From Mobula hypostoma (Eukaryota), in assembly GCF_963921235.1 (NCBI RefSeq), contig NC_086097.1, positions 79,858,001 through 79,922,000 on the forward strand: a stretch of 64,000 nucleotides of DNA. The letters run 5' to 3'. The notes below the pieces were generated by a model, which ran no database searches, had not been told where the DNA came from, and worked only from the letters and a program-made list of their open reading frames with translations. Shown in pieces: positions 11,009-59,847 of the stretch (within the stretch, counting starts at the first letter, position 1; every line of letters begins with the position of its first letter). A program made the translations under genes and the position numbers.

Positions 11009-11232
11009 CAACAGGAATTCTGCAGATGCTGGAAATTCAGGCAACACACATCAACGTTGCTGGTGAACGCAGCAGGCCAGGCAGCATCTCTAGGAAGAGG
11101 TACAGTCGACGTATCGGGCCGAGACCCTTCATCAGGACTAACCTGACGAAGGGTCTCGGCCCGAAACGTCGACTGTACCTCTTCCTAGAGATGCTGCCTG
11201 GCCTGCTGCGTTCACCAGCAACTTTGTGTGTT
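11009..11232. mobile_element. ORF-less fold-back Penelope-terminus element with hammerhead motifs
   Basis: ~90 bp inverted arms (11043-11136 and 11142-11232), 5-nt apex, one-sided 34-nt tail; 13-bp TSD ACCTATACGAAGA at 10996-11008 and 11233-11245. Confidence 0.9.
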
Positions 11233-11245
11233 ACCTATACGAAGA

Positions 11246-11420
11246 GCAATTTACATTAACCAATTAAGTTACAAACATGTTTTTACAATGTAAGATAAAA
11301 CTGAGCATCCAGCACAAACCTATACAATCACAGGGAGATTTTTGCAAAGTATGCACAGACAGCATTGGAGGTCTGGATTGACCCTGGATTGCTGGAGCTC
11401 AGTGACAAAAATAACTGGTG
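11246..11420 (-). mobile_element. Degenerate tRNA-derived SINE (V-SINE/HE1-like) hosting the fold-back element
   Basis: Reverse-strand similarity to the SINE core at 28767-29025 and 53693-53975. Confidence 0.5.
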
Positions 11421-12689
11421 TGCCACTGTGTCAGTCCTCTCCACCTCTATCCCCTCTGCAAATTAAAACACTTAATATCTCACTTTTCCAGATCTGATGA
11501 AGGGTAGATGAAATGAAACTGTTCTCCACTCCACAAATAATGGCCCAACATGTTGACATCACCATTATTTCCTATTTCTATCTTGATTCAGCAACTGCAA
11601 TTTCTTTTCTTTGTGAACTTTTATCCAGTCACCCAATGCAAATTTCAACTTATGCTGTGTGCTTACCCTTCCACTATGGAGGGAAAGGTGAGCTGAATCT
11701 GAAACACTTTTCATCAATAAAATAAGTTGCTTTATGTCTGCAAGATTTTAGAAATCTATCAAAATTAGTTACCAAAAATTAAACAAAATGTGAAAATTTT
11801 TATATTTCATAAAATTCCAAGTGGATGGGAAGCAACAACCATTGCTGCAAAAATAATTATTTCTGAGTAATTACAAAAATATTTATAGAGATAGATTACT
11901 TTCAATATATACACAAAAGCTATGAACTTATATTAAATCCAAGAGGAGTTAATAATATTGGAGAACTAAACAGTTTAATCTTAAACAAATAACCAAGCTG
12001 AATTTTGAAGTATTGTCTTCATGGAAAAAGATTCCTGTTATATACCTCACAACTGCAAAGCACTGAATAGCACTTGCACAACAAAAAGAAATGCTTATCT
12101 AAAGTGACAAGCATCATATATAGATTAACTCTCCAGCACTGAAAATTAAATATTTTACATTCAAAATTTCATTCCATTGAATTTAAACTCTTGCACTCAC
12201 ATTTATAAAATGTGCTTGTTTCAAAATAATTTTACCTTTTTTTTTCTTTTGCAATTTAATCTCACTTTGTCCTTCTGTATTGGATTTGACATTGAATTCA
12301 CTAGTCTAGTTTATTCATTCTACTTAGTCCTTCCACGATTAATAACTTAGAAACTGGATTACATAGAAAAAGTGGTCTTTCTGCATGATTTATGGAGCCC
12401 ATGAATTTTTGATCTGACAGTTCTTGGTACAGTTCATACCAGCATAGATCAGACATTTGACTTTCTGGAGACACACACTAAATGTTGTAATACTTATTTG
12501 AAGTGTCTGCAGCTAAAATTGGGTTTCTTTTTGTTAGAAACATTGTTGGCCACTCACACCTAACCATATTTTCATAATGTTCACTGTAGCTGCATGGTTT
12601 AAAAAGTTAATGCTTGTTTGTTTTGCTAGTTCAAGGATGCCTGAAGTCTTGGGAAGCTACTACGTGCTGCTAGAGCAACTTTGGATTAA

Positions 12690-14310: not shown

Positions 14311-14854
14311 ATGAAGTGATAACAGAATTGCCTAGGTATCTTATAGCAAAAGGTGGATTTTACTTTTACCTTTTCTTGAGCAGAGTTTGTCAAGTTGAGG
14401 GGCCATGTAGACTCATAAAGGGTTGCAGGCTTTTCCAAAGTTCAGGGAGTTAAATACTGCAATGTTGTGGATCCTTGACAGAATTTGGAGCTCAACATAA
14501 AATGCATTATTCAGAGGACAATTTCTCACAGTTATCATGTATTCAAGCAGTTCACTTTATCCTTAATCTCAATCACTTTGCACAGTCTTCCATATTTTAG
14601 TCAATGGCTCACATAGAAGACTGGGTCATTGAAGATAAAGGGGATCTCAATCGTCTCAGCCTTTATACTTCAGTATGTGTTGCAGCTGCTGAAGTAAACA
14701 CCTCCTTAACGATTTAAAATGCCACCAACTTCAATAAGATTTCCCCATGACATAAATTTTACTTTCTCCTCAGCTCTTAACATATGAAAGCAACTATTTC
14801 CCTTCATGAACAAGAGCCCCGATGACAGGTCTCAGACCAAAACTTAGACTGTTT

Positions 14855-17800
14855 TAAGTCAAGTCAAGTCAAGTCACTTTTTACTGTCATTTCGACCATA
14901 ACTGCTGGTACAGTACACAGTATAAACGAGACAACGTTTTACAGGACCATGGTGCTACATGAAACAATAGAAAAACTACACCGAACTACGTAAAAACAAA
15001 CAAAAACTACACTAGACTACAGACCTACCCAGGACTGCATGAAGTGCACAAAACAGTGCAGGTATTACAATAAATAATAAACAAGACAATAAGCACAGTG
15101 GAGGGCAGTAGGTTTGTGTCAGTCCGGGCTCTGGGTATTGAAGAGTCTGATGGCTTGGGGGAAGAAACTGTTACATAGTCTGGTCGTGAGAGCCCGAATA
15201 CTTCGGTGCCTTTTGCCAGATGGCAGGAGGGAGAAGAGTTTGTATGAGGGATGCGTGGGGTCCTTCATAATGCTGTTTGCTTTATGGATGCAGCTTGTGG
15301 TGTAAATCGCTGTAATGGCGGAAAGAGAGACCCCGACGATCTTCTCAGCTGACCTCACTACCCACTGCAGGGTCTTAGAACATAGAAATACAACAGTACA
15401 GCACAGTACAGGCCCTTCGGCCCACAATATTATGCCAACCCTTAAACCCTGCCTCCCATATAACACCCCACCTTAAATTCCTCCATATACCTGTCTAGCA
15501 GCTCCTTAAATTTCACTAGTGTATCTGCCTCCACCACTAACTCAGGCAGTGCATTCCATGCACCAACCACTCTCTGAGTAAAAAAACCTTCATCTAATAT
15601 CCCCCTTGAACTTCCCACCCCTTACCTTAAAGCCATGTCTTCTTGTATTGAGCAGTGGTGCCCTGGGGAAAAGGCACTGGCTGTCCACTCTATCTATTCC
15701 TCTTATTATCTTGTACACCTCTATCATGTCTCCTCTCATCCTCCTTCTCTCCAGAGAGTAAAGCCCTAGCTCCCTTAATCTCTGATCATAATGCATACTC
15801 TCTAAACCAGGCAGCATCCTGGTGAATCTCCTCTGCACCCTTTCCAATGCTTCTACATCCTTCCTATAGTGAGGCGATCAGAACTGGACACAGTACTCCA
15901 AGTGTGGCCGAACCAGAGCTTTATAGAGCTGCATCATTACCCCACGACTCTTAAACTCTATCCCTCGACTTATGAAAGCTAACACTCCATAGGCTTTCTT
16001 AACTACCCTATCTACCTGTGAGGCAACTTTCAAGAATTTGTGGACATGTACCCCCAGATCTCTCTACTCCTCCACACTACCAAGTATCCTGCCATTTACT
16101 TTGTACTCTGCCTTGGAGTTTGTCCTTCCAAAGTGTACTACCTCACACTTCTCTGGGTTGAACTCCATCTGCTACTTCTCAGCCCACTCCTGCATCTTAT
16201 CAATGTCTCTCTGCAATCTTTGACAATCCTCTACACTGTCCACAACACCACCAACCTTTGTGTCGTCTGCAAACTTGCCAACCCACCCTTCTACCCCTAA
16301 ATCCAGGTTGTTAATAAAAATTGTGAAAAGTAGAGGTCCCAGAACTGATCCTTGTGGGACACCACTAGTCACAACCCTCCAATCCGAATGTACTCCCTCC
16401 ACCACAACCCCCTGCCTTCTGCAGGCAAGCCAATTCTGAACCCACCTGGCCAAACTTCCCTGGATCCCATGCCTTCTGACTTTCTGAATAAGCCTACCGT
16501 GTGGAACCTTGTCAAATGCCTTATTAAAATCCATACAGATCACGTCCACTGCATTACCTTCATCTCTATGCCTGGTCACCTCCTCAAAGAACTCTGTCAG
16601 GCTTGCTGGACACGATCTGCCCTTCACAAAGCCATGCTGACAGTCCCTGATCAGACCATGATTCTCTAAATGCCCATAGATCCTATCTCTAAGAATCTTT
16701 TTCAACAGCTTTCCCACCAGAGACATAAGGCTCACTGGTCTATAATTACCCAGACTATCCTTACTACCTTTATTGAACAAGAGGACAACATTCGCCTCCC
16801 TCCAATCCTCCGGTACCATTCCCGTGGACAACAAGGACATAAAGATCCTAGCCAGAGGCTCAGCAATCTCTTCCCTCGCCTCGTGGAGCAGCCTGGGGAA
16901 TGTTCCATCAGGCCCCAGGGACTTATCTATCTTAATGTATTTTAACAACTCCAACATGCTCCAGACCATCAACCTCACTCATATTGTCCTCACTGTCATC
17001 AAGTTCCCTCTCATTAGTGAATACAGAGAGAAGTATTCATTGAGGACCTCGCTCACTTCCACAGCCTCCAGGCACATCTACCCACCTTTATCTCTAATCG
17101 GTCCTACCTTCACTCCTGTCATCCTTTTGTTCTTCATATAATTGAAGAATGCCTTGGGGTTTTCCTTTACCCTACTCGCCAAGGCCTTCTCATGCCTCCT
17201 TCTTGCTCTCCTCAGCCCCTTCTTAAGCTTCTTTCTTGCTACCCTATATTCCTCAATAGACCCATCTCATCCTTGCTTCCTAAATCTCATGTATGCTGCC
17301 TTCTTCCACCTGACTAGATTCTCCACCTCACTTGTCACCCATGGTTCCTTCACCCTACCATTCTTTATCTTCCTCACTGGGACAAATTTATCCCTAACAC
17401 CCTGCAAGAGATCTCTAAACATCGACCACATGTCCATAGTACATTTCCCTGCAAAAACATCATCCCAATTCACACCTGCAAGTTCTAGCCTTATAACCTC
17501 ATAATTTGCCCTTCCCCAATTAAAAATTTTCCTGTCCTCTCTGATTCTATCCTTTTCCATGATAATGCTAAAGGCCAGGGGGTGGTGGTCACTGTCCCCC
17601 AGTTGCTCACCCACTGAGAGATCTGTGACCTGACCCGATTTGTTACCTAATACTAGATCTAGTATGGCATTCCCCCTAGTCGGCCTGTCAACATACTGTG
17701 ACAGGAATCCATCCCGGACACACTTAACAAACTCTGCCCTGTCCAAACCCTTGGAACTAATCAGGTGCCAATCAATATTAGGGAAGTTAAAGTCACCCAT

Positions 17801-19195
17801 GATAACAACCCTGTTATTTTTGCACCTTTCCAAAATCTGCCTTCCAATCTGCTCCTTGGTATCTCTGCTGCTACCAGGGGGCCTATAGAATACTCCCAAT
17901 AGAGTAACTGCTCCCTTCCTGTTCCTGACTTCTACCCATACTGACTGAAAAGAGGATCCTGCTACATTACCTACCCTTTCTGTAGCTGTAATAGTATCCC
18001 TGACCAGTAATGCCATCGCTCCTCCCCTTTTTCCTCCCTCTCAGTCCCTTTTAAAGCACTGAAATCCAGGAATATTGAGAATCCATTAATGGCCAATACC
18101 TCATAATTCCATGCATGTATCCAAGCTCTCAGTTCATCACCTTTGTTCCTGATGCTTCTTGCATTGAAGTACATGCAGTTTAGCCCTTCTACCTTACTAC
18201 CTTTCCACCCTTTACACAAGTTTCTCTTTCCTCAAAGCCTCTTTACATGTTAGATCCAGCTTTACTCCATGTACTATACTTGCAGTTCTCTCATGACCTT
18301 TATCCTCCTCCACCTCACTATCTGCTCTAACACTCTGGTTCCAGTCCCCCTGCAAATCTAGTTTAACCCTCCCCCCCCCCCCCCCCCCCAGAGCAGCACT
18401 AGCAAATTCTCCCACAAGGATGTTAGTCCCCCTCCAGTTCAGGTGCAACCCGTCCCGTCAGAACAGGTCTCACCTTCCCTGGAACAAGGCCTAATTGTCC
18501 AGAAACATGAAGCCCTCCCTCCTGCACCAACTCCTTAGCCACGTATTTAGCTGCATTATCTTCCTATTTCTAGCCTCACGAGCACGTGGCACGGGTAGAA
18601 TCCACGTCTTCTGATCCAAGGTGGTGCAATTTCCGAACCAAGCAGTGATGGAGCTGCTCAGGATGCTCTCAATACGACCTCTGTAGAATGTGGTGAGGAT
18701 CGGGGGTGGGAGATGGACTTTTCTCAGCCTTCACAGAAAGTAGAGATGCTGCTGGGCTTTCTTTGCTATGGAGCTGGTGTTGAAGGACAGTGAGATTCTC
18801 CACCATGTGAACACCAAGAAATTTGGTGTTCTTAACGATCTCTACGGATGAGTCGTCGATGTTCAGCCGAGAGTGGTCGCTCCATGTCCTCCTGAAATCA
18901 ACAACCATCTCTTTTGTTTTGTTCACATTCAGAGACAGGTTGTTAGCTCTGCACCAGTCCATCGGTCGTTGCACCTCTTCTCTATATGCTGACTCATCGT
19001 TCTTGCTGATGAGACCCACCATGGTCATGTCATCGGTAAACCTGATGATGTGGTTCGAGCTGTGTGTTGCAGCACCGTTGTGGGTCAGCAGAGTGAACAG
19101 CAGTGGACTGAGCACACAGCCCTGGGGGGCCCCTGTGCTCAGTGTGATGGTGTAGGAGATGCTGCTTCCAATCCGGACTGACTGGGGTCTCTTTT
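14855..19195 (-). mobile_element. Rex1/Babar LINE fragment split by CR1; pieces 14855-15376 and ~18606-19195
   Basis: GAPQGCVLSPLLF, FTDD, KFLGV in ORF 18669-19199; DPTHPSYKLFSLLPSG in ORF 15119-15466; (AAGTC)4 tail at 14856; GTCTT lies on both sides of the CR1. Confidence 0.85.
15377..18605 (-). mobile_element. CR1 LINE, truncated within ORF1, disabled; inverted relative to the copy at 6926-9793
   Basis: ORFs 17267-18016, 16172-16978 and 15590-15847; end of the ORF1 esterase domain at 18400-18600; tail TATTTCTATGTTCT. Confidence 0.95.
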
Positions 19196-20520
19196 CCATA
19201 GATGTTCCCTGGCCTGTTAAGTTCCTCCAGCATTTTGTGTGTGTTGCTGATTCCCTTCAGTTTCCCTTAGTCTGTTGTTCCATCTACACTCTCCTTTCTC
19301 ATGCAACTGCAGCAGATACCACACTGTAATTTTACCTCTTCCCTCTCCCTCACCACATCTAGATTCCCAAATTGCCCTTCAAAGTGGAATAGTAATTCAT
19401 TTGCAACTCTGTCAATGTAAAGTTCTACATTTATGTAGTATTCACGATATTATCTCCTCTAATCTGGAAATACCAAATGTAAATTGGATGACTATTATTT
19501 GAGTCCCAATGTATCGTCTGTGGGGGCTGCACGGCATACAAATTTGCATAGCAAATTGCCTGCCATTTTAATTCCTCAATCTATTCCCACTCTGATCTGT
19601 GGCATCTTACACTGTTATAATGAATCCCAATGTAAGCTTGATAGATCCCGGGGGAAATCTTTATTGATCCCGGGGGAAATTGGTTTTCGTTACAGTTGCA
19701 CCATAAATAATAAATAGTAATAGAAATAGTAATAGTCATGGAAATAATAAATAGTAATAGAAAAATAGTAATAAATAGTTAAATAGTAATATGTAAATTA
19801 TGCCAGTAAATTATGAAATAAGTCCAGGACCAGCCTATTGGCTCAGGGTGTCTGACCCTCCAAGGGAGGAGTTGTAAAGTTTGATGGCCACAGGCAGGAA
19901 TGACTTCCTATGACGCTCTGTGCTGCATCTCGGAAGAATGAGTCTCTGGCTGAATGTACTCCTGTGCCCACCCAGTACAATATGTAGTGGATGGGAGACA
20001 TTGTCCAAGATGGCATGCAACTTAGACAGCATCCTCTTTTCAGACACCTCCGTGAGAGAGTCCAGTTCCATCCCCACAACATCACTGGCCTTACAAATGA
20101 GTTTGTTGATTCTGTTGGTGTCTGCTACCCTCAGCCTGAGAAACAGCACCTGATTTTTCTGTCTGAGCATGTGATAATCTCAGGAACCCACCACTGAATT
20201 CTTTACCAGAATGGGTCATTTCTGCTATAAATCCATTTGAGTCATTGATTCTAATTTTTCACCTTTTCATATTCTTGTACTCTTTAAGTGCCCTCAGATC
20301 ATAGATTTTTTTTCCTTTTCTCTCTCACTATAAACCCATCAAGCCGATGATCTCTACAAATTATCCCCATGACCACCGTGGTCTCACCCAATCCTAACTG
20401 AAACTAGCTTAATTTCTTTCTTTCTCAGTTCTGATGAAGGGTCTTTAGCATGAAACACTTAGAGTTTCTCATTATGCAGATGCTGCCTGACCTGGTGCTT
20501 CTAACATTTACTGCCTTAAT
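19196..20520 (+). mobile_element. Old Penelope-like remnants interrupted by a Rex1 3' end
   Basis: PLE terminus at 19196-19250; degenerate GIY-YIG coding at 19300-19640 resuming at 20135 (EKQHLIF); CTGATGAAGGGTC at 20431. Confidence 0.6.
19641..20134 (-). mobile_element. Rex1/Babar-type LINE 3' end
   Basis: ORF 19835-20170 ILDNVSHPLH...TERHRKSFLPVAIKLYN; same 3' terminus as 33068-33165. Confidence 0.8.
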
Positions 20521-20719
20521 TCCATAAAGATTGCTCCACTGCCACCAGGAACCTTGCAAAAAATGCTGTTAAAATTCACTAAATTATGTAATTTGCATTC
20601 CTCTGGGGAGAACCAGAGCAGCTTCCATAACAATGGCAAAAATAAGGCCCAGCCTTTGCCTGAGATCAGCTAACAGGACAAGGTGCAACAGGAAGAGAAA
20701 GCAAGTGACGACTGGCAAA

Positions 20720-21690: not shown

Positions 21691-22181
21691 AAGTGGCACA
21701 CCAGAACATTTGTACATACACTCAGAGCACTACCTAGACTAGTACCCAGAGTTTATTATCTGAGGACCCATCTCCATGAGCTTCTTCAAAGGGCAGTCAT
21801 AATTAGGAAAATGATAAGCTACCTTCAGACCATCTGTTTTTTTGCAGTCAAGGACCTTGGTAAGAAGTTACTATGCAGTTTGGACTCCACAACCCAATGT
21901 AGTAAAGATAATCTGAAGTTGCTTAAGCGAACCATGACCTTTGTCAATAGTGGAACAAGTTTACACAAAATGGATCATAACAATTTCCACGATAGGACAG
22001 AATATTCCTTAGGTTGCCACAGTACAGTGCCAAAGTTAATGAGGAGGCATCATGAGTTCATAACCATGGAAACGTTTCTCGCTCTTAAGCAGACAACTAT
22101 TGCTGATGGAAAAATTAGTTAATGGAAGACAACTGATTCAGTATCATCTGCATCTGTGGAGAAGATACCTCAAATGCCATC

Positions 22182-22917
22182 ACACATAAAAGTTGCTAGT
22201 GAATGCAGCAGGTCAGGCAGCATCTCTAGGAAGAGGTACAGTCGACGTTTCGGGCCAAGACCCTTCCTCAGGACTAACTGAAAGAAGAGCTAGTAAGAGA
22301 TTTGAGAGGGGGAGGGGGAGGGGGAGATCCAAAATGATAAGAGAAGACAGGAGGGGGAGGGGGAGGGATGGAGCCAAGAGCTGGACAGGTGATTGGCAAA
22401 AGGGATATGAGAGGATCGTGGGACAGGAGGCCTAGGTAGAAAGATAAGGGGGGGGGGAGCCCAGAGGATGGGCAAGGGGTACAGTGAGGGGGACAGAGGG
22501 AGAAAAAGAAGAGAGAGAAAAAGAATGTGTGTATATAAATAAATAACGGATGGGGTACGAGGGGGAGGTGGGGCATTAGCGGAAGTTTGAGAAGTCAATG
22601 TTCATGCCATCAGGTTGAAGGCTTCCTAGACGGAATATAAGGTGTTGTTCCTCCAACCTGAGTGTGGCTTCATCTTTACAATAGAGGAGGCCGTGGGATA
22701 GACATATCAGAATGGGAATGGGACGTGGAATTAAAATGTGTGGCCACTGGAACGTCCTGCTTTCTCTGGCGGACAGAGCGTAGGTGTTCAGCAAAACGAT
22801 CTCCCAGTCTGCGTCGGGTCTCGCCAATATACAGAAGACCACATCGGGAGCACCGGATGCAGTATATCAACCCAGCCAACTCACAGGTGAAGTGTCGCCT
22901 CACCTGGAAGGACTGTC
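22182..22917 (-). mobile_element. Young 5'-truncated Penelope-like element: GIY-YIG C-terminus, 3' UTR and hammerhead-bearing terminus
   Basis: LIYCIRCSRCGLLYIGETRRRLGDRFAEH, VATHFN, RLEEQHLIFRLGSLQPDGMNIDF. Confidence 0.92.
22239..22277 (-). ncRNA. Minimal type I hammerhead ribozyme motif (intact core)
   Basis: Minus strand reads TTAGTC-CTGAGGA-AGGGTCTTGGCCC-GAAAC-GTC-GACTG: CUGANGA and GAAA core, stem II GGG/CCC, stem I AGUC/GACU, GUC cleavage triplet, loopless stem III. Confidence 0.8.
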
Positions 22918-24960: not shown

Positions 24961-27470
24961 AACACACATAAAATGCTGGAAGAACTCAGCAAGTCAGACA
25001 ACATCAATGGAGGGTAATAAGCAATAGATGTTTTGGGCTGAAAACCTTCGTCAGGACTGGAAAGGAAGAGGACAGAAGCCACAATAGAAAGGTAGGGGAG
25101 AGAAAAGGAGTACAAGCTAGCAACTGGTAGATGAGAGGGAAGGTGTGGGGGAGATGTTGAAGTACGAAGCTGGAGGGCGATAAGTGAAAGAGGTAAAGGG
25201 CTGCAAAGGAGTATGGTAGGAGACAACTGACCATGGAAGAAAGGGAAGGATGAGGGGCACAAGAGGAAGACTATGCATAGGGGAGAAGAGAAGGGCTGAG
25301 TGGGTAACCAGAATGGTGAAAGGAAAAGAGAGAAGTGGTATGGGAGGGAAAAAAATTACTGGAAGTTAGAAAAAAATCAATAGTCATGCTATCAGGTTAG
25401 AGGCTATCCAGACAGAATATGAGTTATTACTCTTCCATTTGGAACTTGGCCTCATCATAGCAATAGAGGCGGCCATGGACAGACATGTCAGAATGGGAAT
25501 GGGAAGTCCACCTTTTGCGACAGACAGAGCGAAAGTGGTTGACAACGTGGTTCTCCAAGCTGTGTTGGGTGTCGCAAGAGTACAGGAGACCATACCAGCA
25601 GCACCGGATACAATGGATAACCCTGGCAGTCTCATAGATGAAATATTGCCTCAGCTGGAAGGACTATTTGGAGCAATGAATGGTGGTGAGCGAAGAAGTA
25701 TAGAGACAGTTTTAGCACCTGTCACGTATGCAGGGATAAGTGCCAGGAGGGAGCTCAGTGGGGAGGACCAAGTGGACAAGAAAGTCATATAGAGTATGAT
25801 CCCTACAGAAAGTGAAACGGGGTGTTGGTGGGAAGGAGGGAAGGAAAGATGTGCTTAGTGGTAGCATCCCACTGGAGATGATGGAAATTACATAGAAAGG
25901 TGTGTGGAATATGGAGGCTTATAGGTTGGTAGGTAAGGATAAGGCAAACTCTATTCCTGTTATGGCAGGGGGAGAGCTGTGAGATTGGGATGAGGGCAGG
26001 TGTGCGAGAAATGTAAGAGATGCTGGTGAGGGCAGCATTGATGGAGATGGAAGGGAAGCCCCATTCTTTGATAAAGGACGCCATCTCAGATATTCTTTGC
26101 ATTTCTGGTCAGATGCTAAATGTATTTCATTGGCTTTGTATCTGTACTCGGCACAATGACAATAAAGTTGAATCTAATCTAATGTTCGAGTATAGAAAGC
26201 CTCATCCTGAGAACAGATGCAATATGGTCAGCCGAACTGAAAAAAAGGAATAACATTTTTACAAGTGACAGGGTGGAAAGAGGTATAGTCAAAATGACTA
26301 CGATAGTCAGCAGGGTTTGTAAAGGATGTCAATAGATAGTCTAACTTCAGCGATGGAGCCAGAGATTGAGAGATTGGGAGAGATGTGTCAGAGATGGACC
26401 AAGTAAATTTGAGGGCAGGGTGCAAATTTGAGGCAAAGTTGATGAAATTCATGAGGATGGAATAGGTGCAGGGAGCAGCGCTTTTGCTTTAAAGAAAGCT
26501 GAAAGTGAAATTATTGAGGGTGAGAAGTATTTTCGCCAGATGGAGGAGGGTGGTGGTGCAGAGGAACAGGTAAAGTCTGTTACCCACAAAGAAGAAGAGA
26601 GATTTCAGGTCTTCCTGATGGGGAGAGATGTGCATAGGAACTGGATGTCCTTAATTAAAACAGGGTGATCAGGACCAAGAAACTGAAAGTGATTGAAGTA
26701 ATGGAGAACATGTAAAGTGTCATGGATGTAGGCAAGAAGGGACTGAAGCAAGGGGCACACAAGTTCACTGGGGCAGGAGCTGGCCTCTCCATTGACCCCA
26801 CGAATCTTTAACCCTCCTCTGACCACAGCTCCAACTGCTGCCATATCTTCACCATCCTCTCCAGTCTGCCCCTCTCTGAGGCAGCAAACTCTATCCTCAG
26901 CAAAGCCCTTATCTTTGTCCTACAGTACCCACACCTCAGCGAGTTTAGCAGCTGCTATGATGTTTCTCTCTCTTTGTTGTATCTATCTTCAAGCCTACTT
27001 CTTTGGCAAGAATTCCCCACACCCCACCAATGATACCAGTCTTCAACCCTCCTCCTCTTCACAGACAACCCACTCTGGAATACTTCATCTCCAACTGCTT
27101 ATGAGGCATCAACAATCTCAACTTCATCACTCCTCTCTCCTATTCAAACCTCACACCCTCAGAACTCACTGCCCTCCACACCATCGTAAACACTGACAAA
27201 CCCAGTGACAATGGGAGGGGATGCTGTTGTTGTCTGGCAGACTGATCTCTACCTTGCTGAGGTCAGACAGTAATTCTCATCTACCTTCTCTTACTACTCC
27301 CACACCATCACCAACCTCATTGATTCCGGTGATTTCCCCACCCACTACCATCAGACTCATAGTTCTCTTACCATGCACTGCTTGTTTCTACCTCTTATCC
27401 ACACATCTGACTATCTGGGTAGGCCCATTGTTTCTGCCTGCTCTTGCCGAACTGAACTTGTGTCTGTATC
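24961..27470 (-). mobile_element. Long degenerate Penelope-like element (RT + GIY-YIG) with inverted 5' segment
   Basis: 24961-26780 is minus-sense (FINFASNLHPALKFTWSISDT); 26781-27470 is plus-sense N-terminal coding ending RPIVSACSC.TELVS; a small Rex-type tail is inserted at ~26092-26182. Confidence 0.8.
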
Positions 27471-27489
27471 TGCAGGATCTCTCATGTTC

Positions 27490-38604: not shown

Positions 38605-39665
38605 GGAAACACACACAAAGTGCTGGAGGAACTCAGCAGGACAGGCAGCATCTATGGAAAAGAGTACAGTTGATGTTTCAGGCTGAGACCCTTCAGCAGG
38701 ACTGGAGGAAATAAGTTGAGGTGTAGATTTAAAAAGGGAGGGGGAGAGAGAAACTTAAGGTGATAGGTGAAACCTGAAAGGGAGGGGGAATGAAATAAAG
38801 AGCTGGGAAGTTGATTGTTGTAAGAGACATAAGACCATGGAAGAAAGAAAAGGGGGGAGGAGCACCAGAGGGAGGCAATGGGTGGGTAAGGAGATAACAT
38901 AAGAGAGGGAAAAGGGAATGGGGGGGAGCTGGGGGCATTACAGGAAGTTTGAGAACTAGATGTTCATGCCTTCAGATTGGAGGCTACCCAGATGGTATAT
39001 AAGGTGTTGTTCCTCCATCCTAAATGTGGCCTCATCACGACAGTAGAGGAAGCCAATGATAATAGACATATCAGAGTGGGAATGAGAAGTGGAATTAAAA
39101 TGGGTGGCCACTGGGACATCCCATTTTGTCTGGCAGACAAAACGCAGGTGCTCAGTGAAGTGGTCTCCCAATCTATACTGGGTCTCACCGCTGTACAGGA
39201 AGCCACACCAGGAGCACCAGACACAATTTATGAACCCAACAGACTCACAGGTGAGGTGTCGCCTCACTTGGAAGGACTGTTTAGGGCCCTGAAGGTAGTG
39301 AGGGAGGAGGTGTAGGGGCAGGTGTAGCACTTGTTCCGCTTGCAAGGATAAGTGCCAAGAGGGGTGGGAAGGGACGAATAGAGAAGGGGAGTCGCATAGG
39401 GAGCGATCCCTGCAGAAAGCAGAAAGTGGGGGGAGAGAAAGATGTGCTTGGTAGTGTGATCCCATTGGAGATGGCGGAGGATTCAGAGAATTATGTGATG
39501 GACATGGAGGTTGGTGGGGTTATAGGTGAGGACAAGAGGAACCCTATCCTTGGTAGGGTGGCGGAGGAATGGGGCAAGAGCAGATGTGCATGAAATGGAA
39601 GAGATGCGATTGAGGGCAGCATTGATGGTAGTGGAAGGGAAGCCCCGTTTTTTGAAAAAGGAGTG
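38605..39665 (-). mobile_element. Penelope-like element, 3' part, with degenerate hammerhead
   Basis: DRVPLVLTY, CSWCGFLYSGET, RMEEQHLIYHLGSLQ; terminus reads CTGCTGAAGGGTCTCAGCCTGAAAC on the minus strand. Confidence 0.9.
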
Positions 39666-48964: not shown

Positions 48965-49144
48965 CTGTACACAATGCTCCAAATGTGGCCTCATGATTGT
49001 CCTGTACAACTAGAGCAAAAATTCCCCTACTCTGTACTCAATTTTTCTGTCATTAAACAAATACATTCTGGAAACACAAGGGACTGCAGGTGCTGGAATC
49101 TGGAGCAACAATTTACTGGTCCTAATGCAGGTTTTCAACCCAAA

Positions 49145-50787
49145 CATAAAGAAACTACAGCAGACCAAGGGGTTTTATTTTTGTATGGAACAGAAGAAAA
49201 AACCTTCAAAGGGACTGAATTCAAGTGAGCTACTTGAATACAGGAAATTAACAATTAGAATAATTATTCTGAGATCATCTTTCTTACGTTAGATAATACA
49301 TGCTAGAGGATGTGAAGGCTTCCATCTGGGGGTGGGGGAATGAGACAAAGGCAATAAAGTTGTAAATCTGTTTCACTGTTAGAACCCATTAACAGTTTTA
49401 AAAATATTAAATCAGATATCATAGATCTTTAGGCTGAAATTCCTTGTTGAAGGCTAAGGGTTGACTATATAAATCTCCAGTGATTTCAAGCTGTGTTTGT
49501 GAGCAATTCCTTTCTTCCAAAAGACACTGCTTGAGCTACTGAATTTCTCCAGCACATTATTTGTTGCACAATAACATAATATTACTTATTTTCAATTACT
49601 AGGATTTTGCAATTTGGGTAGATATTCACCCTCTGCAGTCAAAGCTCTCAACATAGAGTTAAATAATATGTTTTCATTTTTCTGCTAAAATGGTTAATTT
49701 CGTTTTTCACACATCATACTCCATTAGTCAGATTTTGCACATTCATTTTTCTGTCCTTTCCCAGACTCCGTCTGTTGCCTTCATCAAGTCACTTACATAA
49801 ATTAACAAAAGTTGAGTCCAACCCACACACTAAAGGCAATTTATCATGACCATTAATAAATTAACATGTATGTTTTTGGGATGTGGGTTGAAACTCAAGT
49901 GCTGATGGTAAGCCTGTCGTTACAAAGAGCATGTACAAAGAATTTTGGAGGTAAGAATTGAACCCAGGTTGCTGGACCTATGAGGTAGTAGCTATAACAG
50001 TAGTTTCACTCTTCATCCAAGTTACAGTTGATGAACTAGGCATTCACCACAGTCTTCAGTATGCTGCAATAATTAGTAGTTAATCCAAGCTATGCAATCT
50101 TGAGCAAACAGAAAAAACGTGGTTCAGTTTATTATAAAATTGATCCACATACCAAAATCACCTACTTCTTCATATGAAGTAAGGGAGAACAAGAAGAAGG
50201 CCCTTAACTCCGTGTGGAGTCATCGGGACGCCATCATGACAGCGTTTTTTTTAGCAGGCTTTCTTATTTTTACGAGGCCAAGTTGCTAGCTCGATGCTCA
50301 ACCCAGCATGGATGGAAAGCGTGCAAGAGGGCTGGCTGGATTTGAACTTGGGAGCCTTTGCTCCGAAGTCCAGCGCTGATGCCACTATGCCACCAGCTGG
50401 CTATATGAAGAAAGAGATGAAGCATAAAGAAATTACAGCAGACCAAAGGTTTTTATTTTTGTACGGAACAGAAAAAATAACATTCTAAGGTACTGAAGTA
50501 GAGGGAATTCCTTGAACACAGAATGAACAAATAGAATCACTGTTAGTTTTGAAATCATTTTTCTTACATTTGATAATGCATGCTAGGGGATGTGAAGACT
50601 TACAACTGGGGGAATATGAGGCCAAGGCAATGAAGTTGTAAATCTGTTTCATTGTTAGGAAAATTAACAGTCTTTAAAATCTTAAATCAGATATCATAAA
50701 TCTTTAACACGAGGCTGAAATTCCTTGTTGAAGGGGAAGGACTGACTATATAAACCTCAAAAACAATTACCAGTGGTTTTAAGCTGT
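49145..50787. repeat. Diverged direct duplication of a ~350-bp non-TE block (49145-49494 and 50423-50787)
   Basis: Collinear alignment by eye, e.g. CATAAAGAAAYTACAGCAGACCAA, AAGTTGTAAATCTGTTTCA, AGGCTGAAATTCCTTGTTGAAGG. Confidence 0.9.
50187..50402 (-). mobile_element. tRNA-derived SINE
   Basis: Minus strand has A box TGGCATAGTGG and B box AGTTCAAATCC; imperfect 15-bp TSD ATATGAAGTAAGGGA / ATATGAAGAAAGAGA. Confidence 0.75.
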
Positions 50788-51304
50788 CATTTTGAAATCT
50801 GAAAGTACTTTAAGGCAATTACCACCATTTGCAATAGATTGATTTTACTTCTCTTAATACTAACAAAATAAATGCATAAATCTAGAGTTCACAACTGATC
50901 CTGTTGTTTCTGGAGATGGGCATGAATCTATAACTCAAATATATTTTTCAATTAGCTCATCTGAAAAGAAAGCACTGTCATAGTTTTCTTTTCAATGCAC
51001 AAGAATAACCAACATCAAATAGGTATATATTGGTACTACATGACACAAGGGATTCAGTTCTTCATGCTTCATGCGATTATGTAATTATAGTGCATCTTCC
51101 TTGATTTTCCGGATATCCTGGCACAGTTTAACCCTGAACTAATATTCCTTTTAGAATTATCACTGAGTCTTCTTTCTCTGCTGATTTTCCGGTAGGTTCC
51201 AGAATGCAATAAACAGGAATTCTGCAGATGCTGGAAATTCAAGCAACATACATCAAAGTTGCTGGTGAACGCAGCAGGCCAAGCAGCATCTATAGGAAGA
51301 GGCG

Positions 51305-51342
51305 CAGTCGACGTTTCAGGCCGAGACCCTTCGTCAGGACTA
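51305..51342 (-). ncRNA. Minimal type I hammerhead ribozyme motif
   Basis: Exact reverse complement of 51670-51707. Confidence 0.78.
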
Positions 51343-51669
51343 ACTGAAGGAAGAGTGAGTAAGGGATTTGAAAGCTGGAGGGGGAGGGGGAGATGCAAAA
51401 TGATAGGAGAAGACAGGAGGGGGAGGGATAGAGCCGAGAGCTGGACAGGTGATAGGCAAAAGGGGATACGAGAGGACCATCCTCTGGGTCACCCCCCCCC
51501 GCCTTGTCTTTCTTCCCGGACCTCCTGTCCCATGATCCTCTCGTATCCCCTTTTGCCTATCACCTGTCCAGCTCTCGGCTCTATCCCTCCCCCTCCTGTC
51601 TTCTCCTATCATTTTGGATCTCCCCCTCCCCCTCCAACTTTCAAATCCCTTACTCACTCTTCCTTCAGT

Positions 51670-51707
51670 TAGTCCTGACGAAGGGTCTCGGCCTGAAACG
51701 TCGACTG
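51670..51707 (+). ncRNA. Minimal type I hammerhead ribozyme motif
   Basis: TAGTC-CTGACGA-AGGGTCTCGGCCT-GAAAC-GTC-GACTG; predicted cleavage after 51702. Confidence 0.78.
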
Positions 51708-52554
51708 CGCCTCTTCCTATAGATGCTGCTTGGCCTGCTGCGTTCACCAGCAACTTTGATGTATGTTTCCAGAATGCAATAGTTGGTTTCACAATTTGTT
51801 CCACAATCTTATTAAACTAGTGTTTTCTGCATATCAACCCTAACAGTTGCAGTAAGTATGCATGACTATGGATTCATTTAATTAATGTTCTCTTAGTTTT
51901 CTGTCTTTTAAGTATTAACAAACTCAGTATTTCCAATTTCTCAATCTATTTAAGTCCCATATCATTGGTTCCACTCTAGTAATTCTGCTTTTGCAACATC
52001 TTCAAGGCCTTGACATTCTTCCTAGCACATAGTCATAGTACTCACTATTAATGACCCCAGCTGGGGCCTTACCATTATTTTATAAAGGTTAACCTGGTTG
52101 CTGTTCTATGTTCCCACAGAGTATTTTTTTCAAAAACAGCTTTCATAAAGCCTTCAAATAATCATGCATGTACATTCCCACAGTTCCTATATGCCTCTTA
52201 AAATTATTCATTTTTTCTTCTCATTTGTACACTCTATGTTCCTTGACAGTCTCTCTCTGCTTTTATTTTCTACAAGTTATTAACTTAACATTTCGTGACA
52301 CCTAAACAGAAGTGAAGGCAAGACTATTGAAATGCACTCTCTTGTTAACAAAAGAATATAAAAAAGAACTAGGTGCAGAGGGAAAAAGAAATATTTTTAA
52401 AATAGCTGACCAAAGAACTGAAAAAATCCTAGTATATTGCATTTACTATTCAGGCTCAGAATGCACAATTTGAGTTTTAAAAGATTCATTTAGAACATTT
52501 ATTAAAAAGTGGTTAAAACTAATTCCACAACTTTTTAATTCATGGATTCTGCAA

Positions 52555-53480: not shown

Positions 53481-53529
53481 AAAGGAGTGACAACAAAAAG
53501 GGAAAAAAAAGAACTCATGCCATTTTTGA

Positions 53530-54340: not shown

Positions 54341-56029
54341 AACCAAGGCTGTATCAATACTAGGAAACAAAAATAAGGTGGGGGGGAAAAAAGATGTCAG
54401 CACTAAAGTGTCATCATTAGAACATCTATGACGGACCCAGAAAACTGTGATAATGTAATGCAGTGCATATAGGAAGCAGGGTGAGAGGAAATGCAGTCAA
54501 GTTATGGAAGTATTGCAATGGATGTTGGTTGCTAATCCAAGATAGAGGCAAATGATTCTTAAAAGGGAAGGGAAGAGTCAGACATGAGAATGAGAGTATG
54601 GTGGAAAGTATTAGCAGAGGTGATGAAATTTTCACATTTTGTATGTGAGCAGGAAGAAGCAGCTAGACAGTTCAGAGGTAGTTATTCACCATAAGGAACA
54701 AACATTTCATTCCCACCATGAAGCTATAGCTACTGCATCATATACTGTGTCTGCTGTACTACATAAAATACCTGCAACAAAAGCACCAATAGATCTTGAA
54801 GCTAATGCATGTAATTGGGAATTAGAATGCTCACCTGTATATTCAAATCCACCTATGGTTTGCTCCTCCTTATTGCTTTGACCTCCTGCCCTGAAATTCT
54901 CCAATTCTACATATACTAGATACTACTTATGCTACTATAATTTCACATAGGTCTTAAGCCTTCAGTCCATAAATCTCTTCCTTCTTCTATTTTCAGTGTT
55001 GGCCATGGTTCATCTGTTTGGAACATCACCACTACTAGAAGCTACTACAGAGGTCTGAGCACAACATCTAGGCTGACATTTACAATGCACTGATAGGAAT
55101 ATAGGCTACATTAAACTAAGGCTTCATTTTCCTGGTCAAGTGGACAAAACATCTGACAACATAATTTAAAAACTAACAAGAGATTTATTCCTTGTGTTAT
55201 GGCCAACATTTCCCCCTCTTTAGGAGCAAATCAATTGCCCTTCTTCCTATTTAAGAGCAGTTAATATGCTTCAAAACATTATTGACTAAAAGAAACTTCG
55301 GTAATTCTATGGTACACAAATGATGTTATAATATGCATTCCCTTTCTTCAGAAAAACAAACAGCTGAGCTTTCTTAACAAAGATCCTTTGGTTTCAATGG
55401 TTTAGCATCAATGTCACTATAACTGATCACTGAAGCTTTCCATTACATTTCCCACTTGTGATGATATCACTCTGGGACAATTAATATGACTGAATAAAAA
55501 TATCAAATAAATAATTATTATATATGTTCTGGAAGTTTTTATTAAATGAATGCAAATTTATTATTGTGCAATATTGAACAAATTGGGTACCAATCAGAAT
55601 AAGCAAGAAGAGGGCCATCTTTCTGGGCTGAAAGAAAGTGTTCAACGAAGCAGTTACCCAATTTGTTGCTGATTTCTTTAATTTGGCATTAACCAAATGT
55701 AATGAGTGCACTTTCAGAAGTGAGGCACTATTTCACCTGGAAGAATTATTTAGGGGTTTCTGAATGATAGGAAGGGAAAAAGTTAAATCACAAGCATTGC
55801 AATTTTTGCAGTTGTGAGGGAAGTTACCATGTAAAAGAAAGTAGGGGTTGGCGGAGATGAAAGTGTAAATCAGGGAACTGTGGAATGTACAGTTTACTTA
55901 ATACTGAAAGGGAAGGAAAAATACAGGTTAAAAATAGTAGAGGGACTTACTGCTGGCTGTGGATGGAATAACAGCATTTTATAGCTGCTCCTAGTTTACT
56001 TTTTTTGCTTTCCAACCTGATTTGATACT

Positions 56030-56869
56030 ATGACTACAAGAACTGCTAAAGGTAAAAAAGATTCTTCTACATTTTTGGATACTATTATCAAATTGCTGCA
56101 AAAGCACAGAAAAGAAGCGTCCGAGGAATTTCTGCGATTCAGAAAAGAATCCTCCAAGGAATTTCAGGGATTTAGAAAGGAATCCTCCAAAGAGTTTCAA
56201 CAACTTGGCTCTGAAATTAAACAATTAAGTACAAAACTGAATTCTATTCAAGAAACCTTAACTGAGCACGATAAACGAATCAAAGAGAATGAAGAAGTCC
56301 TGTCGATTCTGGATGAGAAAATGGACGACTTGCAAGAGCGTTATGAAAAACAATCCAAGGATAATGATGAACTAAGACAGAAGATTACTGATGTAGAAAA
56401 CAGAAGTAGAAGGAATAAAGTACGAATTCTTGGTCTCGAAGAGTTAACTAAAGGTGATCATCCTACGGAATTTTTTGCAAACTTTTTGGTTCGGTTATTT
56501 CCTCATATTTTAAAATCGGCACCAATGATCAACCAAGCGCACAGAGTACCTGGGAACAGGACATTTGCAAGCAAACCTCGTTCAGTAATAATCTGTTTTC
56601 ATGAGTTTCAAACAAAGGACCGTATAATTCGTGAATCTTGTCGGAAAGGTATGATTGATTATAATGGTAAGAAGATTAGAATTGTTGAAGATTTCTCGGC
56701 AGAGATCATGACGGAGCATGCTAAGTTTAAAAGTGTCATGCTAGAGCTTGACAACAAGGATTTTAAACCTTGGTATCCAGTGAAGCTCAGAATTACACTG
56801 CAGGATGGATTGCCGAAATGGTTCCGTTCAAGTCTCCAGGCCCAGAAATTTTTAGAGTCAGTAAAGTGA
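56030..56869 (+). CDS. L1 ORF1p (coiled coil, RRM, CTD)
   Basis: 279-aa open frame; ENRSRRNKVRILGLEE, AHRV, PRSVII, IRIVEDFS, YPVKLRI. Confidence 0.88.
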   Translation: MTTRTAKGKKDSSTFLDTIIKLLQKHRKEASEEFLRFRKESSKEFQGFRKESSKEFQQLGSEIKQLSTKLNSIQETLTEHDKRIKENEEVLSILDEKMDDLQERYEKQSKDNDELRQKITDVENRSRRNKVRILGLEELTKGDHPTEFFANFLVRLFPHILKSAPMINQAHRVPGNRTFASKPRSVIICFHEFQTKDRIIRESCRKGMIDYNGKKIRIVEDFSAEIMTEHAKFKSVMLELDNKDFKPWYPVKLRITLQDGLPKWFRSSLQAQKFLESVK

Positions 56870-57506
56870 TTGCTTATTATCTGTTACATGAATAACTGTC
56901 TATTTTACCTTTGCTAAACTTGGTACTCAACTCTTTCTTTTTGAACTTCTTATGGATTTATTTTGAGAATAAGATTTTAATGTGCTAATACTTTGTCTGC
57001 TAAGTTTAGAAGTGTCATGTTGGAGCTGTTTAACAAAAACTTACATGAATAATTGTGTATTTTGCCTCTGATGAATCTTGTAGTCAATCTTCTATTTGAA
57101 CCTTTCAAGGTTTTACTTTGAGAATAAGATTTTAATGAGCTAATATTCTGTGTGTCCATATTATTTTATATTACACTTACTTTTCTAGAGATCTTGATAT
57201 CAGAATTAACTGTTTCTTTATTATCTGTTGTTCTGACTAGGTTGCAATATTTCCAACTTTGAAATTTATTTGGAGCTAAGCCAGCAGGATTTTTAGGGGG
57301 ATGTTGCTATTAGTTGTAGGCGTCGACTTTCTTTGGTCGACTTTCTCTCTTTGGGAGGGGGGAGGGTGGTTGGGTTTTATTTCTTGGAAGCCCTTTGGGA
57401 TTCTTAGTCAAACCTTTTTTTTGTGTCCTTATCTCATAGATCATTGTTTAGTTTTGTTAATCTTCTTAAGGATTATCCTTTAACTTTTCTTTTAAATATA
57501 AATAAA

Positions 57507-58913
57507 ATGGATTATAGTATTAATTTACTTAGTCTTAACATGAAAGGATTAAGTCACCCTTTGAAACGAAATAAGATTTTTGCCTATATTAAAAAACTTA
57601 AGGCAACATGCTGGAGGAACTCAGTAGGTTGGGCAGCATCCGTGGAAACTACCAGTCAATGTTTCGGGCCGGAACCCTTTGTCAGGACCCTTCCGGCCCA
57701 AAACGTTGAATGATCGTTTCCACGGATGCAGCCCGACCTGCTGAGTTCCTCCAGTGTGTTGTGAATGTTACTTTGACCCCAGCATCTGCAGAGTATTTTG
57801 TGTCTAAAAAAATTAAGGTCCCAATTATTTTTTTTACAAGAAACCCACGTATGCAATTCTAATAATTCACGCTTTTTTAGCCAATGGAGAGGATTACACT
57901 TGTGTTTTCGGGCCAAATCGAGAGGAGTTTCAATTTTTATAGAAAATACAGTTCCCTTTGTTCAACATAAGGTTGTTTCTGATACTAATGGGCGATTTGT
58001 TATAGTATCAGGGAAATTAGAGAATAAATTGTTGGTATTTGCTAATGTTTATGCTCCAGATATAGACGATTCAGGATTCTTTGAGCATTTTTTTTTTCCG
58101 TTTCTGCCTGATCTGAGTTTGTACTCATTGGTGATGGCAGGAGAATTTAATTGCTGATTAGATCCAGTTTTAGATCGGTCTTCTTTTAAACCAGTGACAC
58201 TTAATAAATCAGCCTTGTTTATTCACTCATTTCTAATGAAATGTGGTATTGTTGATATATGGCATTTCTTACACCCAGCCGATAGAGAATACTCGTTTTT
58301 CTCTCACGTTCATCACACGTATTCCAGAATTGACTATTTTTTTTATAGATAACCAAATGATTCCATTAGTTCGATCTTGTGAATATAAAGAGCTTGCTAT
58401 TCCTGTCCATGCTCCTGTGCTTTTATCCATCAATCTTCCTGGTTTTCCTCAAACAGATTCTGGTGTTTTAATTTAACTTTGTTATCTGACAATTATTTCT
58501 TAAGGTTCTTGGAGAGGCAACTTACTCTCTTTTTTGAAGAGAATACAGTGGAGGAGACTTCTATCCTTGTCATATGGGATGCCTTTAAAGCATATATTAG
58601 AGGACAAATCATTTCTTATACCGCAAGTGTTAAGGAAAAAGCTAATAAAGAGAGAATTAATTTAGCCAATCAGCTGAAACAATTAGATGAAGAACATGCT
58701 TTGTCTTCAGATCCTGTTTTATATAAAAGATGGGTTGAAATTAAAACTAAATATGATTTTTTCTTAATATATCCTATTGAAACTCAACTTCTAAAGGATA
58801 AAAGTCAATTTTATATTCATGGAGATAAAACAGGTAAATTATTGGCTAACCAATTAAAACTTCTAGTGCTAAAGGACAGATTAAAGAAATTTATAAAGTT
58901 AACGGTATTAGGA
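57507..58913 (+). pseudogene. L1 ORF2 N-terminal part (endonuclease and linker), disrupted
   Basis: Homologous to the ORF2 at 2-3169; stops, frameshifts and insertions. Confidence 0.88.
57604..57804. mobile_element. Older fold-back Penelope-terminus element inserted in L1 ORF2
   Basis: Imperfect ~70-bp arms, tail on the right; 14-bp TSD TAAAAAA(C/A)TTAAGG at 57590-57603 and 57805-57818; degenerate hammerhead CTGACAA..GAAAC on the minus strand. Confidence 0.85.
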
Positions 58914-59843: not shown

Positions 59844-59847
59844 TAAG

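Follow-up and report, generated by a model that had tools for sequence, protein, structure and literature searches.

Three very short head-to-head pairs of Penelope-like element 3′ ends, probably made by two reverse-transcription starts at each site

Introduction

Three fold-back insertions built from the terminus of a Penelope-like element (PLE) lie in the 64-kb stretch of DNA analysed here (the window), and the question they raise is whether such hairpins are copied whole as a family of their own or are made anew at each site, and by what steps. A first-pass annotation had offered either a retrozyme- or MITE-like family or repeated stalling and fold-back of reverse transcriptase (RT) at a hammerhead ribozyme.

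Geometry of the insertions

Self-BLAST of the window returned exactly three close inverted repeats, at 11009-11232, 51212-51766 and 57604-57804 (insertions 1, 2 and 3; 224, 555 and 201 nt, respectively; Table 1), the apices of which are different. All three are real two-armed PLE insertions, that is, very short head-to-head pairs of 3′ ends: in each of them the PLE 3′ ends face outward, one partner is inverted and 5′-truncated, and a tail (34, 34 and 43 nt, respectively) is found on one arm only. The target-site duplications (TSDs) are of 13 bp (exact), 15 bp (exact) and 14 bp (one mismatch), and element coding sequence is absent from the arms, the longest of which is 290 nt, whereas the ORF ends ~400 nt upstream of the 3′ end in the solo copy at 22178. 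The shared design described in the first-pass annotation (a palindrome of the PLE terminus with a one-sided tail of ~33–43 nt, a 13–15 bp TSD and no coding sequence) was therefore borne out, as was its placing of the apex at the hammerhead 5′ edge in two of the three, where two apices indeed lie at or near that edge.

The three inserts represent two sequence families, about 69–75% alike. At the apex, the tail-bearing arm is 5–7 nt longer than the other arm in insertion 1, ~51 nt shorter in insertion 2 and 14–16 nt shorter in insertion 3, and each arm of insertions 2 and 3 holds sequence unique to it. The arms of insertion 1 share one nucleotide at the apex, with a 5-nt loop, and differ by three substitutions over an 85-nt core and, close to the end, by a 3-nt gap. 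Insertion 2 is the youngest of the three, with three differences in 234 nt between its arms, which overlap by 3 nt at 51478-51480; its right arm carries about 51–55 nt of extra element sequence at the apex, and the 51-nt ‘loop’ simply continues the element, at 86% to the 22178 copy. Contigs of two other organisms (B and C) match its flank to exactly 51211 and then continue elsewhere, from which the site is likely empty in both. Over 85 nt, five letters are common to both arms of insertion 2 and different in insertion 1; these may only identify whichever subfamily was then active, as the alternatives are common across the family. In insertion 3, the arms are alike at 61 of 71 positions (86%) and bases 57689-57690 are not assignable to an arm. 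This insertion interrupts an L1-like reading frame at its TSD; the piece at 57819, which we take to be L1-like from its QETH and ANVYAP motifs, had no Pfam match, and a sub-threshold match of L1 ORF1 type lies just upstream of it. Pattern scans of metagenome contigs, prokaryote genomes and viral contigs returned no further copies of the pattern.

Table 1. Coordinates of the three insertions and of solo PLE copies in the window
Feature	Position	Strand	Remarks
Insertion 1, left TSD copy	10996..11008	+	13 bp; exact repeat at 11233-11245
Insertion 1, PLE tail	11009..11042	-	34 nt; left arm only
Insertion 1, left arm	11043..11142	-	PLE 3′ end to 6–7 nt upstream of hammerhead core
Insertion 1, right arm	11142..11232	+	tail-less; begins at hammerhead core 11143-11170
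Insertion 1, right TSD copy	11233..11245	+	
Solo copy of parent family	22178..22916	-	5′-truncated; tail-less end; end of GIY-YIG ORF and ~400 nt of 3′ region
Older, more decayed solo PLE copy	24961..26290	-	tail-less end; upstream limit approximate
Older solo PLE copy	38608..39662	-	Zn-finger-like linker and GIY-YIG remnant; tail-less end
Insertion 2, left TSD copy	51197..51211	+	15 bp; exact repeat at 51767-51781
Insertion 2, tail	51212..51245	-	34 nt; predicted 3′ strand of terminal stem-loop of element RNA
Insertion 2, left arm	51246..51480	-	shorter at apex; complete minimal hammerhead
Insertion 2, right arm	51477..51766	+	tail-less; hammerhead core 51675-51702
Insertion 2, right TSD copy	51767..51781	+	
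Insertion 3, left TSD copy	57590..57603	+	14 bp, one mismatch; inside start of L1-like ORF2
Insertion 3, left arm	57604..57690	-	tail-less; second PLE family; 14–16 nt longer at apex
Insertion 3, right arm	57691..57761	+	begins inside helix II
Insertion 3, tail	57762..57804	+	43 nt; right arm only
Insertion 3, right TSD copy	57805..57818	+	

The parent element

Solo copies in the window, none of them a full-length PLE, together with relatives among ray gene models (59–75% identical, with the RT motif YIDD, a cysteine linker and GIY-YIG), point to a very abundant GIY-YIG PLE of a ray-like genome as the source of the inserts. The 22178 copy retains a hammerhead core at 22244-22271 and a GIY-YIG match above the Pfam cut-off (E 3.8e-5); in three of the four relatives GIY-YIG fell below the cut-off, and the ORF at 38956 had no Pfam match. 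The cysteine motif (a Zn-finger-like linker) occurs in the 38608 copy as well as in the relatives, and by the published linker definition alone (PMC8557442) the parent would be of the Neptune/Nematis type. A narrow search found no TSDs for the solo copies at 22178, 38608 and 19189. The PLE origin claimed for the inserts is thus supported by the GIY-YIG ORF of the parent, by the inverted 5′-truncated partner and by the one-sided tail.

The hammerhead motif

The CUGANGA...GAAACGUC motif was found four times in the window and not once in 100 shuffles, and three of the four are inside the six arms (11143-11170, +; 51310-51337, −; 51675-51702, +). Its identity as the minimal type I hammerhead of PLEs is supported, yet the claim that the arms carry it holds for only three of the six, which keep the core (CUGANGA plus GAAA with a NUH cut site), while the other three are broken or incomplete. 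Helix I is kept beside the core only in the two arms of insertion 2; in the left one it pairs 51338-51341 with 51306-51309, with a predicted cut at 51310/51309 and a G-U in place of G10.1-C11.1. In insertion 1, the left-arm core is broken (GAAA to GAUA near 11113) and the right arm is without the 5′ strand of helix I. In insertion 3, the left-arm motif is decayed, with G8 and G16.2 lost, and the right arm is entirely without CUGANGA. Scoring against the Rfam hammerhead families, suggested as a check on the motif, gave no hammerhead at the gathering threshold in the window and none to E 10 on 51200-51800; sub-threshold matches of the insertion 2 region to Rfam miRNA families were rejected, as they reflect the long hairpin.

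The isolated 43-nt motif is predicted to fold with helices I and II. The predicted pairing probability of these helices is ~0 in all five motif-carrying insert strands and at most 0.11 in single arms, each insert strand having one sense motif next to its own antisense copy. The small ribozyme motif in the inserts is thus broken or, by prediction, locked in the hairpin, and the earlier term ‘hairpin ribozyme cassettes’ overstates function. Between subfamilies, the motif forms a conserved island, with 28–32 of 37–39 columns alike against 10–15 of 36 just upstream and 4–8 of 14 just downstream; the terminal stem-loop region is nearly as conserved (23–30 of 36 columns).

Arm ends and joints

Four of the six arms end at the motif 5′ edge and none at the ribozyme cut site, and all six were copied from uncut RNA, because each extends at least 16 nt upstream of that site. 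The motif 5′ edge coincides with a hairpin predicted to compete against the hammerhead fold: the lowest-energy 34-nt RNA window of the last 268 nt pairs 51326-51356 at −10.5 kcal/mol, burying CUGANGA. The predicted fold of the entire 189-nt region is no more stable than expected by chance (z −1.5; equalled in 14 of 200 shuffles). This hairpin evidence comes from one family, the upstream sequence of the insertion-3 family being absent from the window. In the cDNA, a 4-bp inverted match with a 6-nt loop is found at 51347. Under a rough log-uniform null devised for the present analysis, the P value of clustering at the edge is 0.014 by arms (4/11), 0.17 by insertion events (2/8) and 0.02–0.06 by apices (2/3); counted per insertion, the clustering is borderline. 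Of the RT stalling at the ribozyme that the first-pass annotation had envisaged, the preference for the motif 5′ edge stands, but the cut site is not used and a competing hairpin occupies the edge.

Among the joints listed (15 of 41 and 12 of 88, partly uncounted in X1), an opposite-strand joint at 51252/51340 that links the tail end to the hammerhead 5′ edge has an X1 depth of 73 versus 8.9 for the single-copy flank, and is present in one X6 contig too; it is the product expected when a tail-primed cDNA stops at the inner of two priming sites. The joint 51337/51251 (X1 depth 210; strand unstated) may represent a tail-only arm. ‘Skip’ joints that lead from 51238-51248 to 51304-51324 probably reflect subfamily divergence and were left out of account; the depth drop upstream of 51346 was rejected as a breakpoint signal, since other subfamilies diverge there and contig depth is not copy number. 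Loose ends of other subfamilies start at 51305 and 51341.

How the insertions arose

Each insert consists of two strongly shortened PLE 3′ ends and, in our judgement, was probably made at its own site by two RT starts, one per nicked strand. The GIY-YIG domain would nick the two target strands 13–15 nt apart, after which the two nicked ends would prime at different sites, one at the outer (tail) site and its partner at the inner one, both probably on RNA from one source; both cDNAs would stop early, and their upstream ends would be joined via a 0–3 nt overlap. For the body of the second arm, the template may be RNA; it may also be the first cDNA, folded back and the product then captured by the tail-primed end. 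Under either origin, two primings are required. RT stops would favour the hammerhead 5′ edge by way of the hairpin, which may pause RT or offer short inverted matches, rather than by ribozyme cutting. Once inserted, the copies would decay, and their transcripts would form long double-stranded RNA with no active ribozyme. In vitro, PLE protein cuts and extends both target strands, and PLE RT starts at two RNA sites with a spacing equal to the tail length (PMC11167929). The tail-less arms of insertions 1 and 2 stop 1–2 nt from the ends of all three aligned solo copies, and that of insertion 3 fails by ~8 nt to reach the point equivalent to the other family's inner site. The case for double priming is built on just three insertions, and one tail in all three has up to one chance in eight under free choice of site.

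De novo formation, one of the options raised earlier, is supported by the three different apices and two sequence families, yet the simple fold-back of one cDNA proposed with it cannot make two of the three insertions, because each arm there holds unique sequence, the tail-bearing arm being the shorter at the apex. An extended version, in which one tail-primed cDNA stalls, folds back and is copied, the second arm is trimmed at the inner site (by endonuclease or repair) and the apex later suffers lopsided loss, gives the same geometry as double priming and thus counts against it; palindromes undergo lopsided central deletion. This version accounts directly for insertion 1, with its longer tail arm, 5-nt loop and 1-nt overlap, can draw on the inverted match at 51347 and agrees with the diagnostic letters common to both arms, and the tail has been ascribed to endonuclease resolution by Craig et al. 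(PMC8557442). We regard it as unlikely: it needs a second event in two of the three insertions, the youngest included, and the second arm stops at the terminus of the solo copies, a position at which RT starts in published in vitro work. Much less credible is self-priming on an antisense PLE transcript or template, giving a head-to-head pair. It was proposed for rotifer PLEs with like geometry and junction palindromes (Arkhipova et al. 2013, PMC3846280) and could use the native short palindrome at the motif 5′ edge; in later in vitro experiments the templates were sense RNA and internal starts matched the tail, and self-priming alone leaves the sequence unique to each arm unexplained.

That the ribozyme cut determines copy ends could be read from the conserved island at the motif and from the loose ends of other subfamilies, but it is contradicted for these three by the arm ends and weakened by the near-equal conservation of the terminal stem-loop; moreover, in an anole element, insertion in vitro is normal for ribozyme mutants and none of the RNA reads terminates at the cut (PMC11167929), leaving this the faintest of prospects. 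The retrozyme- or MITE-like hairpin family, non-autonomous and copied whole by PLE proteins, would suit the similar design and small size, and according to published accounts PLE pLTRs can mobilise unrelated sequence in trans and retrozymes are argued to derive from PLEs. It is highly improbable and went unsupported, given different apices, two families, asymmetric ends and no tandem direct units: a whole-insert transcript is predicted to be double-stranded nearly end to end with the hammerhead unfolded, and carries one sense motif, whereas minimal hammerheads are reported to need two. Among the joints listed, which did not cover the insertion 2 apex, the deepest reached 214 (~24x the single-copy flank) and many were near single-copy depth. 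Identity as a non-LTR retrozyme was rejected on the finding of inverted pairs only. MITEs have symmetric terminal inverted repeats, a short fixed TSD and uniform copies; the one-sided tail, the 13–15 bp TSD and the sizes of 201, 224 and 555 nt with different apices led to rejection of that identity too.

As objects, the inserts are ordinary dead PLE fragments, and the interest left is in the mechanism; Craig et al. 2021 (PMC8557442) regard the origin of inverted PLE copies as an open question. Arm geometry (which arm reaches further at the apex, the tail arm or the other; zero, one or two tails; tail-only arms) provides a simple count that separates double priming from fold-back. Double priming might further be programmed, the inverted arm and one-sided tail being one phenomenon that arises when the two nicked target strands begin reverse transcription at two fixed sites of one RNA stem-loop, with the hammerhead-silencing hairpin as the main stop; this we put forward tentatively and on balance doubt. 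If true, the huge number of young short copies in this ray-like genome would be a ready record of the PLE integration mechanism, and such hairpins could be a main A-to-I editing substrate in these fishes, like inverted Alus in primates. Among openly accessible papers, judged by title and the opening of the abstract, none was found on twin priming as a PLE mechanism; the model may already be in print elsewhere.

Comparison with known systems

In the twin-priming model of Ostertag and Kazazian for L1, primers reportedly come from both nicked strands and yield an inversion, a TSD and microhomology at the join. The inserts resemble twin-primed L1 in all of these, whereas twin-primed L1 is flipped without duplication and the arms here overlap almost wholly, with both starts fixed near the 3′ end. 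Non-LTR retrozymes (bioRxiv 10.64898/2026.07.22.740005) are likewise non-coding and PLE-related with a type I hammerhead, but form tandem direct repeats with a hammerhead per unit, unlike the single inverted pairs here. The motif matches the minimal hammerheads of metazoan PLEs (Cervera and De la Pena 2014, PMC4209133) in having no helix III loop, a palindromic ACGU, an extra base after A9 and a short helix I, yet differs in its short helix II (4–5 bp) and in that most arm copies are broken or incomplete; motif pairs 100–700 bp apart on opposite strands were already noted in that study.

Like Poseidon of Anolis carolinensis (PAc; Frangieh et al. 2024, PMC11167929), the present family has two 3′ ends a tail apart, both downstream of the hammerhead in a predicted stem-loop, with the ribozyme cut unused as a copy end; unlike PAc, its parent has a cysteine linker before GIY-YIG, and the available text on PAc does not treat inverted copies. 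An inverted, 5′-truncated adjacent copy with a one-sided 30–40 bp tail is the published insertion unit of endonuclease-bearing PLEs (PMC8557442, PMC3846280), with which the inserts share head-to-head arms, one tail, a TSD, a short junction palindrome or overlap and a GIY-YIG parent. They differ in that both copies are only 70–290 nt with the ORF gone, TSDs are 13–15 bp against 8–10 bp in the rotifer PLE, and one tail is 43 nt. The inserts are the shortest form of this already published PLE insertion pattern.

Three two-armed PLE insertions

Self-comparison of the window returned three close inverted repeats only, namely the insertions located by the first-pass annotation, whose coordinates were confirmed. 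Aligned in element sense, each consists of two outward-facing 3′ ends of a Penelope-like element (PLE), joined head to head at an apex. Target-site duplications (TSDs) of 13–15 bp and an extra 3′ stretch (tail) limited to one arm, both likewise claimed earlier, were found at every insertion.

Coordinates of the three two-armed insertions (upstream arm ends, for six arms, are in insertion 2 coordinates)
Insertion	Position	TSD copies	TSD match	Tail beyond other arm (nt)	Upstream arm ends	Arm overlap at join (nt)
1	11009-11232	10996-11008 / 11233-11245	13 bp, exact	34	~51344 and 51338	1
2	51212-51766	51197-51211 / 51767-51781	15 bp, exact	34	51480 and ~51 nt beyond	3
3	57604-57804	57590-57603 / 57805-57818	14 bp, 1 mismatch	43	51338-51340 and 51326	0-2

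In the contig comparison, two other organisms have contigs that follow the left flank of insertion 2 up to precisely 51211, beyond which they run 847 and 354 letters further in sequence unlike the insert, likely representing an empty site in both. Moreover, insertion 3 interrupts an L1-like ORF2 within its initial part, the break falling at the TSD. The likely empty site and the split ORF2 are two independent signs in favour of true insertion.

Other repeats in the window

In the L1-like target of insertion 3 (56021-58952), a frame resembling ORF1 matches Transposase_22 weakly, and the endonuclease starts at 57507. Insertion 1 lies between two RT-encoding LINE copies, presumably CR1-like (6942-9793 and 15377-18214), which are oppositely oriented, separated by 5.6 kb and 94% alike over 2.87 kb. 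The left LINE copy splits an older PLE, whose sequence covers 6484-6832 and picks up again at 9792. At 59011-63447, two 300-nt direct repeats (95%) flank ORFs that match SCAN and zinc-knuckle domains; the stretch also holds a tandem array of 28-nt units (62274-62473) and is probably an internally deleted LTR retrotransposon. Among short older PLE-end relics, 19189-19248 begins just downstream of the hammerhead, and in 20382-20498 and 11480-11560 the hammerhead-like motifs are decayed and belong to other families.

The parent element and its family

The insertion arms match the ends of longer solo copies at 22178, 38608 and 24961, and upstream of the matched ends lies the decayed terminal part of an ORF, identified as GIY-YIG by its score. 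In a protein search, 7 of 18 candidates passed, all of them gene models of two rays (59–75% identical); the RT motif YIDD, the cysteine linker and the endonuclease region were present in each of the four inspected among these seven. The parent is an endonuclease-bearing PLE, probably of the Neptune/Nematis type to judge by its linker (linker-based definition in PMC8557442). Two host-named ray gene models, P0004 (kinase-domain isoform) and P0005 (mucin isoform), include coding sequence of this PLE, either through an annotation artefact or because the element has been exonised. The family is highly abundant, with 86,989 contigs in a single run aligning at 80% likeness to a stretch of 381 nt; this figure is not a copy number, and a single window does not yield a genomic load.

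In X5, a presumed RNA run from a second individual of the same organism, five listed sites (51360-51404) showed + strand T-to-C changes, equivalent to A-to-G in element sense, in 9–12% of depth, versus 0.06–1.2% in X1 and 0.01–1.1% in X6 (DNA runs; X1 counts partial). Family-wide contigs gave 13 T>C places in X5 versus 4–5 in X1 and X6, and a matching A>G excess on the other arm was absent (9 places in X5 versus 11–12). At the listed sites, and with the run type presumed, the signal resembles A-to-I editing in this PLE family; Penelope elements have already been reported among the most edited repeats in Xenopus tropicalis.

The hammerhead motif

The hammerhead core pattern occurred four times in the window and in none of 100 shuffles, and the motif is of the minimal type described for PLEs (PMC4209133). 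The Rfam hammerhead check suggested by the first-pass annotation returned no scoring match for it. Between subfamilies, the motif forms a conserved island (28–32 of 37–39 columns alike, versus 10–15 of 36 upstream and 4–8 of 14 downstream), with the terminal stem-loop region nearly as conserved (23–30 of 36). This conservation of the motif is a property of the active element. The hammerhead earlier ascribed to the arms was found there only in part: three of the six arms carry the core, but helix I as well is present only in both arms of insertion 2. In RNA folding predictions of whole inserts, the hammerhead helices had a pairing probability of ~0, since every sense motif is taken up in pairing with its antisense counterpart; in a single arm, too, another hairpin (51326-51356) was preferred, with CUGANGA buried inside. 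The ribozyme motifs of the inserts are predicted to be mostly dead.

Arm ends and the origin of the arm pair

None of the six arms ends at the cut site (51310/51309); therefore, all six were copied from uncut RNA. Four of the six upstream ends lie inside the competing hairpin, which has the lowest energy of any 34-nt window in the last 268 nt. Under a rough null, edge clustering gave P = 0.014 when counted over the 11 arms of the window (4 at the edge), P = 0.17 when counted per event (2 of 8) and P = 0.02–0.06 per apex (2 of 3); it is suggestive only, the upstream sequence that forms the hairpin coming from the family of insertions 1 and 2. Folding against shuffles found no unusual structure of the hairpin region as a whole.

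Folded-back cDNA copies only its own content. Its first arm must therefore reach further at the apex, and the second arm cannot extend beyond the first arm's start. The fold-back origin raised earlier is thus allowed by the geometry of insertion 1, but not by that of insertions 2 and 3 without later deletion: there the arm that bears the tail is the shorter of the two at the apex, so that each arm holds sequence that the other lacks, and two primings are needed barring later deletion. Two separate primings, one at each start site, would make the arm pair, and would agree by analogy with the anole PLE (Poseidon of Anolis carolinensis) in vitro, where both target strands are cut and extended from two start sites and the tail equals their spacing (PMC11167929). 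In the predicted fold, the tail is the 3′ strand of the terminal stem-loop with its inner end at the loop edge, and the tail-less arm ends of insertions 1 and 2 coincide in alignment with solo copy ends. Among the joints listed (counts partial), a family-wide joint, 51252/51340, connects the tail end on the opposite strand to the hammerhead 5′ edge in two organisms, a hint of the leftover expected from tail-primed cDNA stopped at the inner site. Diagnostic letters common to both arms of a copy (5 in 85 nt, insertion 1 versus 2) fit one source RNA, but equally one active subfamily. The main rival, fold-back followed by lopsided loss at the apex, would yield the same inserts and, with three cases, keeps a modest probability; two separate primings are the likelier origin of these three. 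Programmed double priming as the general mode of PLE insertion is held to be less likely than not. At 49072-49146, weak local alignments show a decayed antisense tail-like piece followed directly by a sense hammerhead-like piece that begins at the 5′ edge of the motif; this may be a fourth, old two-armed insertion in which one arm consists of tail only.

The propagating hairpin family also proposed earlier is not supported, as the insertions have three different apices, fall into two families ~69–75% alike and lack tandem units. It is further disfavoured because no very deep apex joint occurs among those listed (highest depth 214 versus 8.9 for single-copy flank; the insertion 2 apex lies outside coverage). 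By the defining features of MITEs (symmetric terminal inverted repeats, a short fixed TSD, uniform copies), the insertions do not qualify as such. Nor are they non-LTR retrozymes, since they are without the tandem units that define a retrozyme (10.64898/2026.07.22.740005).

Relation to known PLE insertions

A double-priming reading for PLEs was not found in searches of open-licence papers. Pairs of minimal hammerheads on opposite strands, 100–700 bp apart, were noted in 2014 (PMC4209133), and an inverted 5′-truncated partner with a one-sided tail of 30–40 bp is the textbook PLE arrangement (PMC8557442; PMC3846280). Insertions 1–3 resemble this pattern in both the inverted truncated pair and the tail on one side; they are real and are the shortest form of the known PLE insertion pattern.
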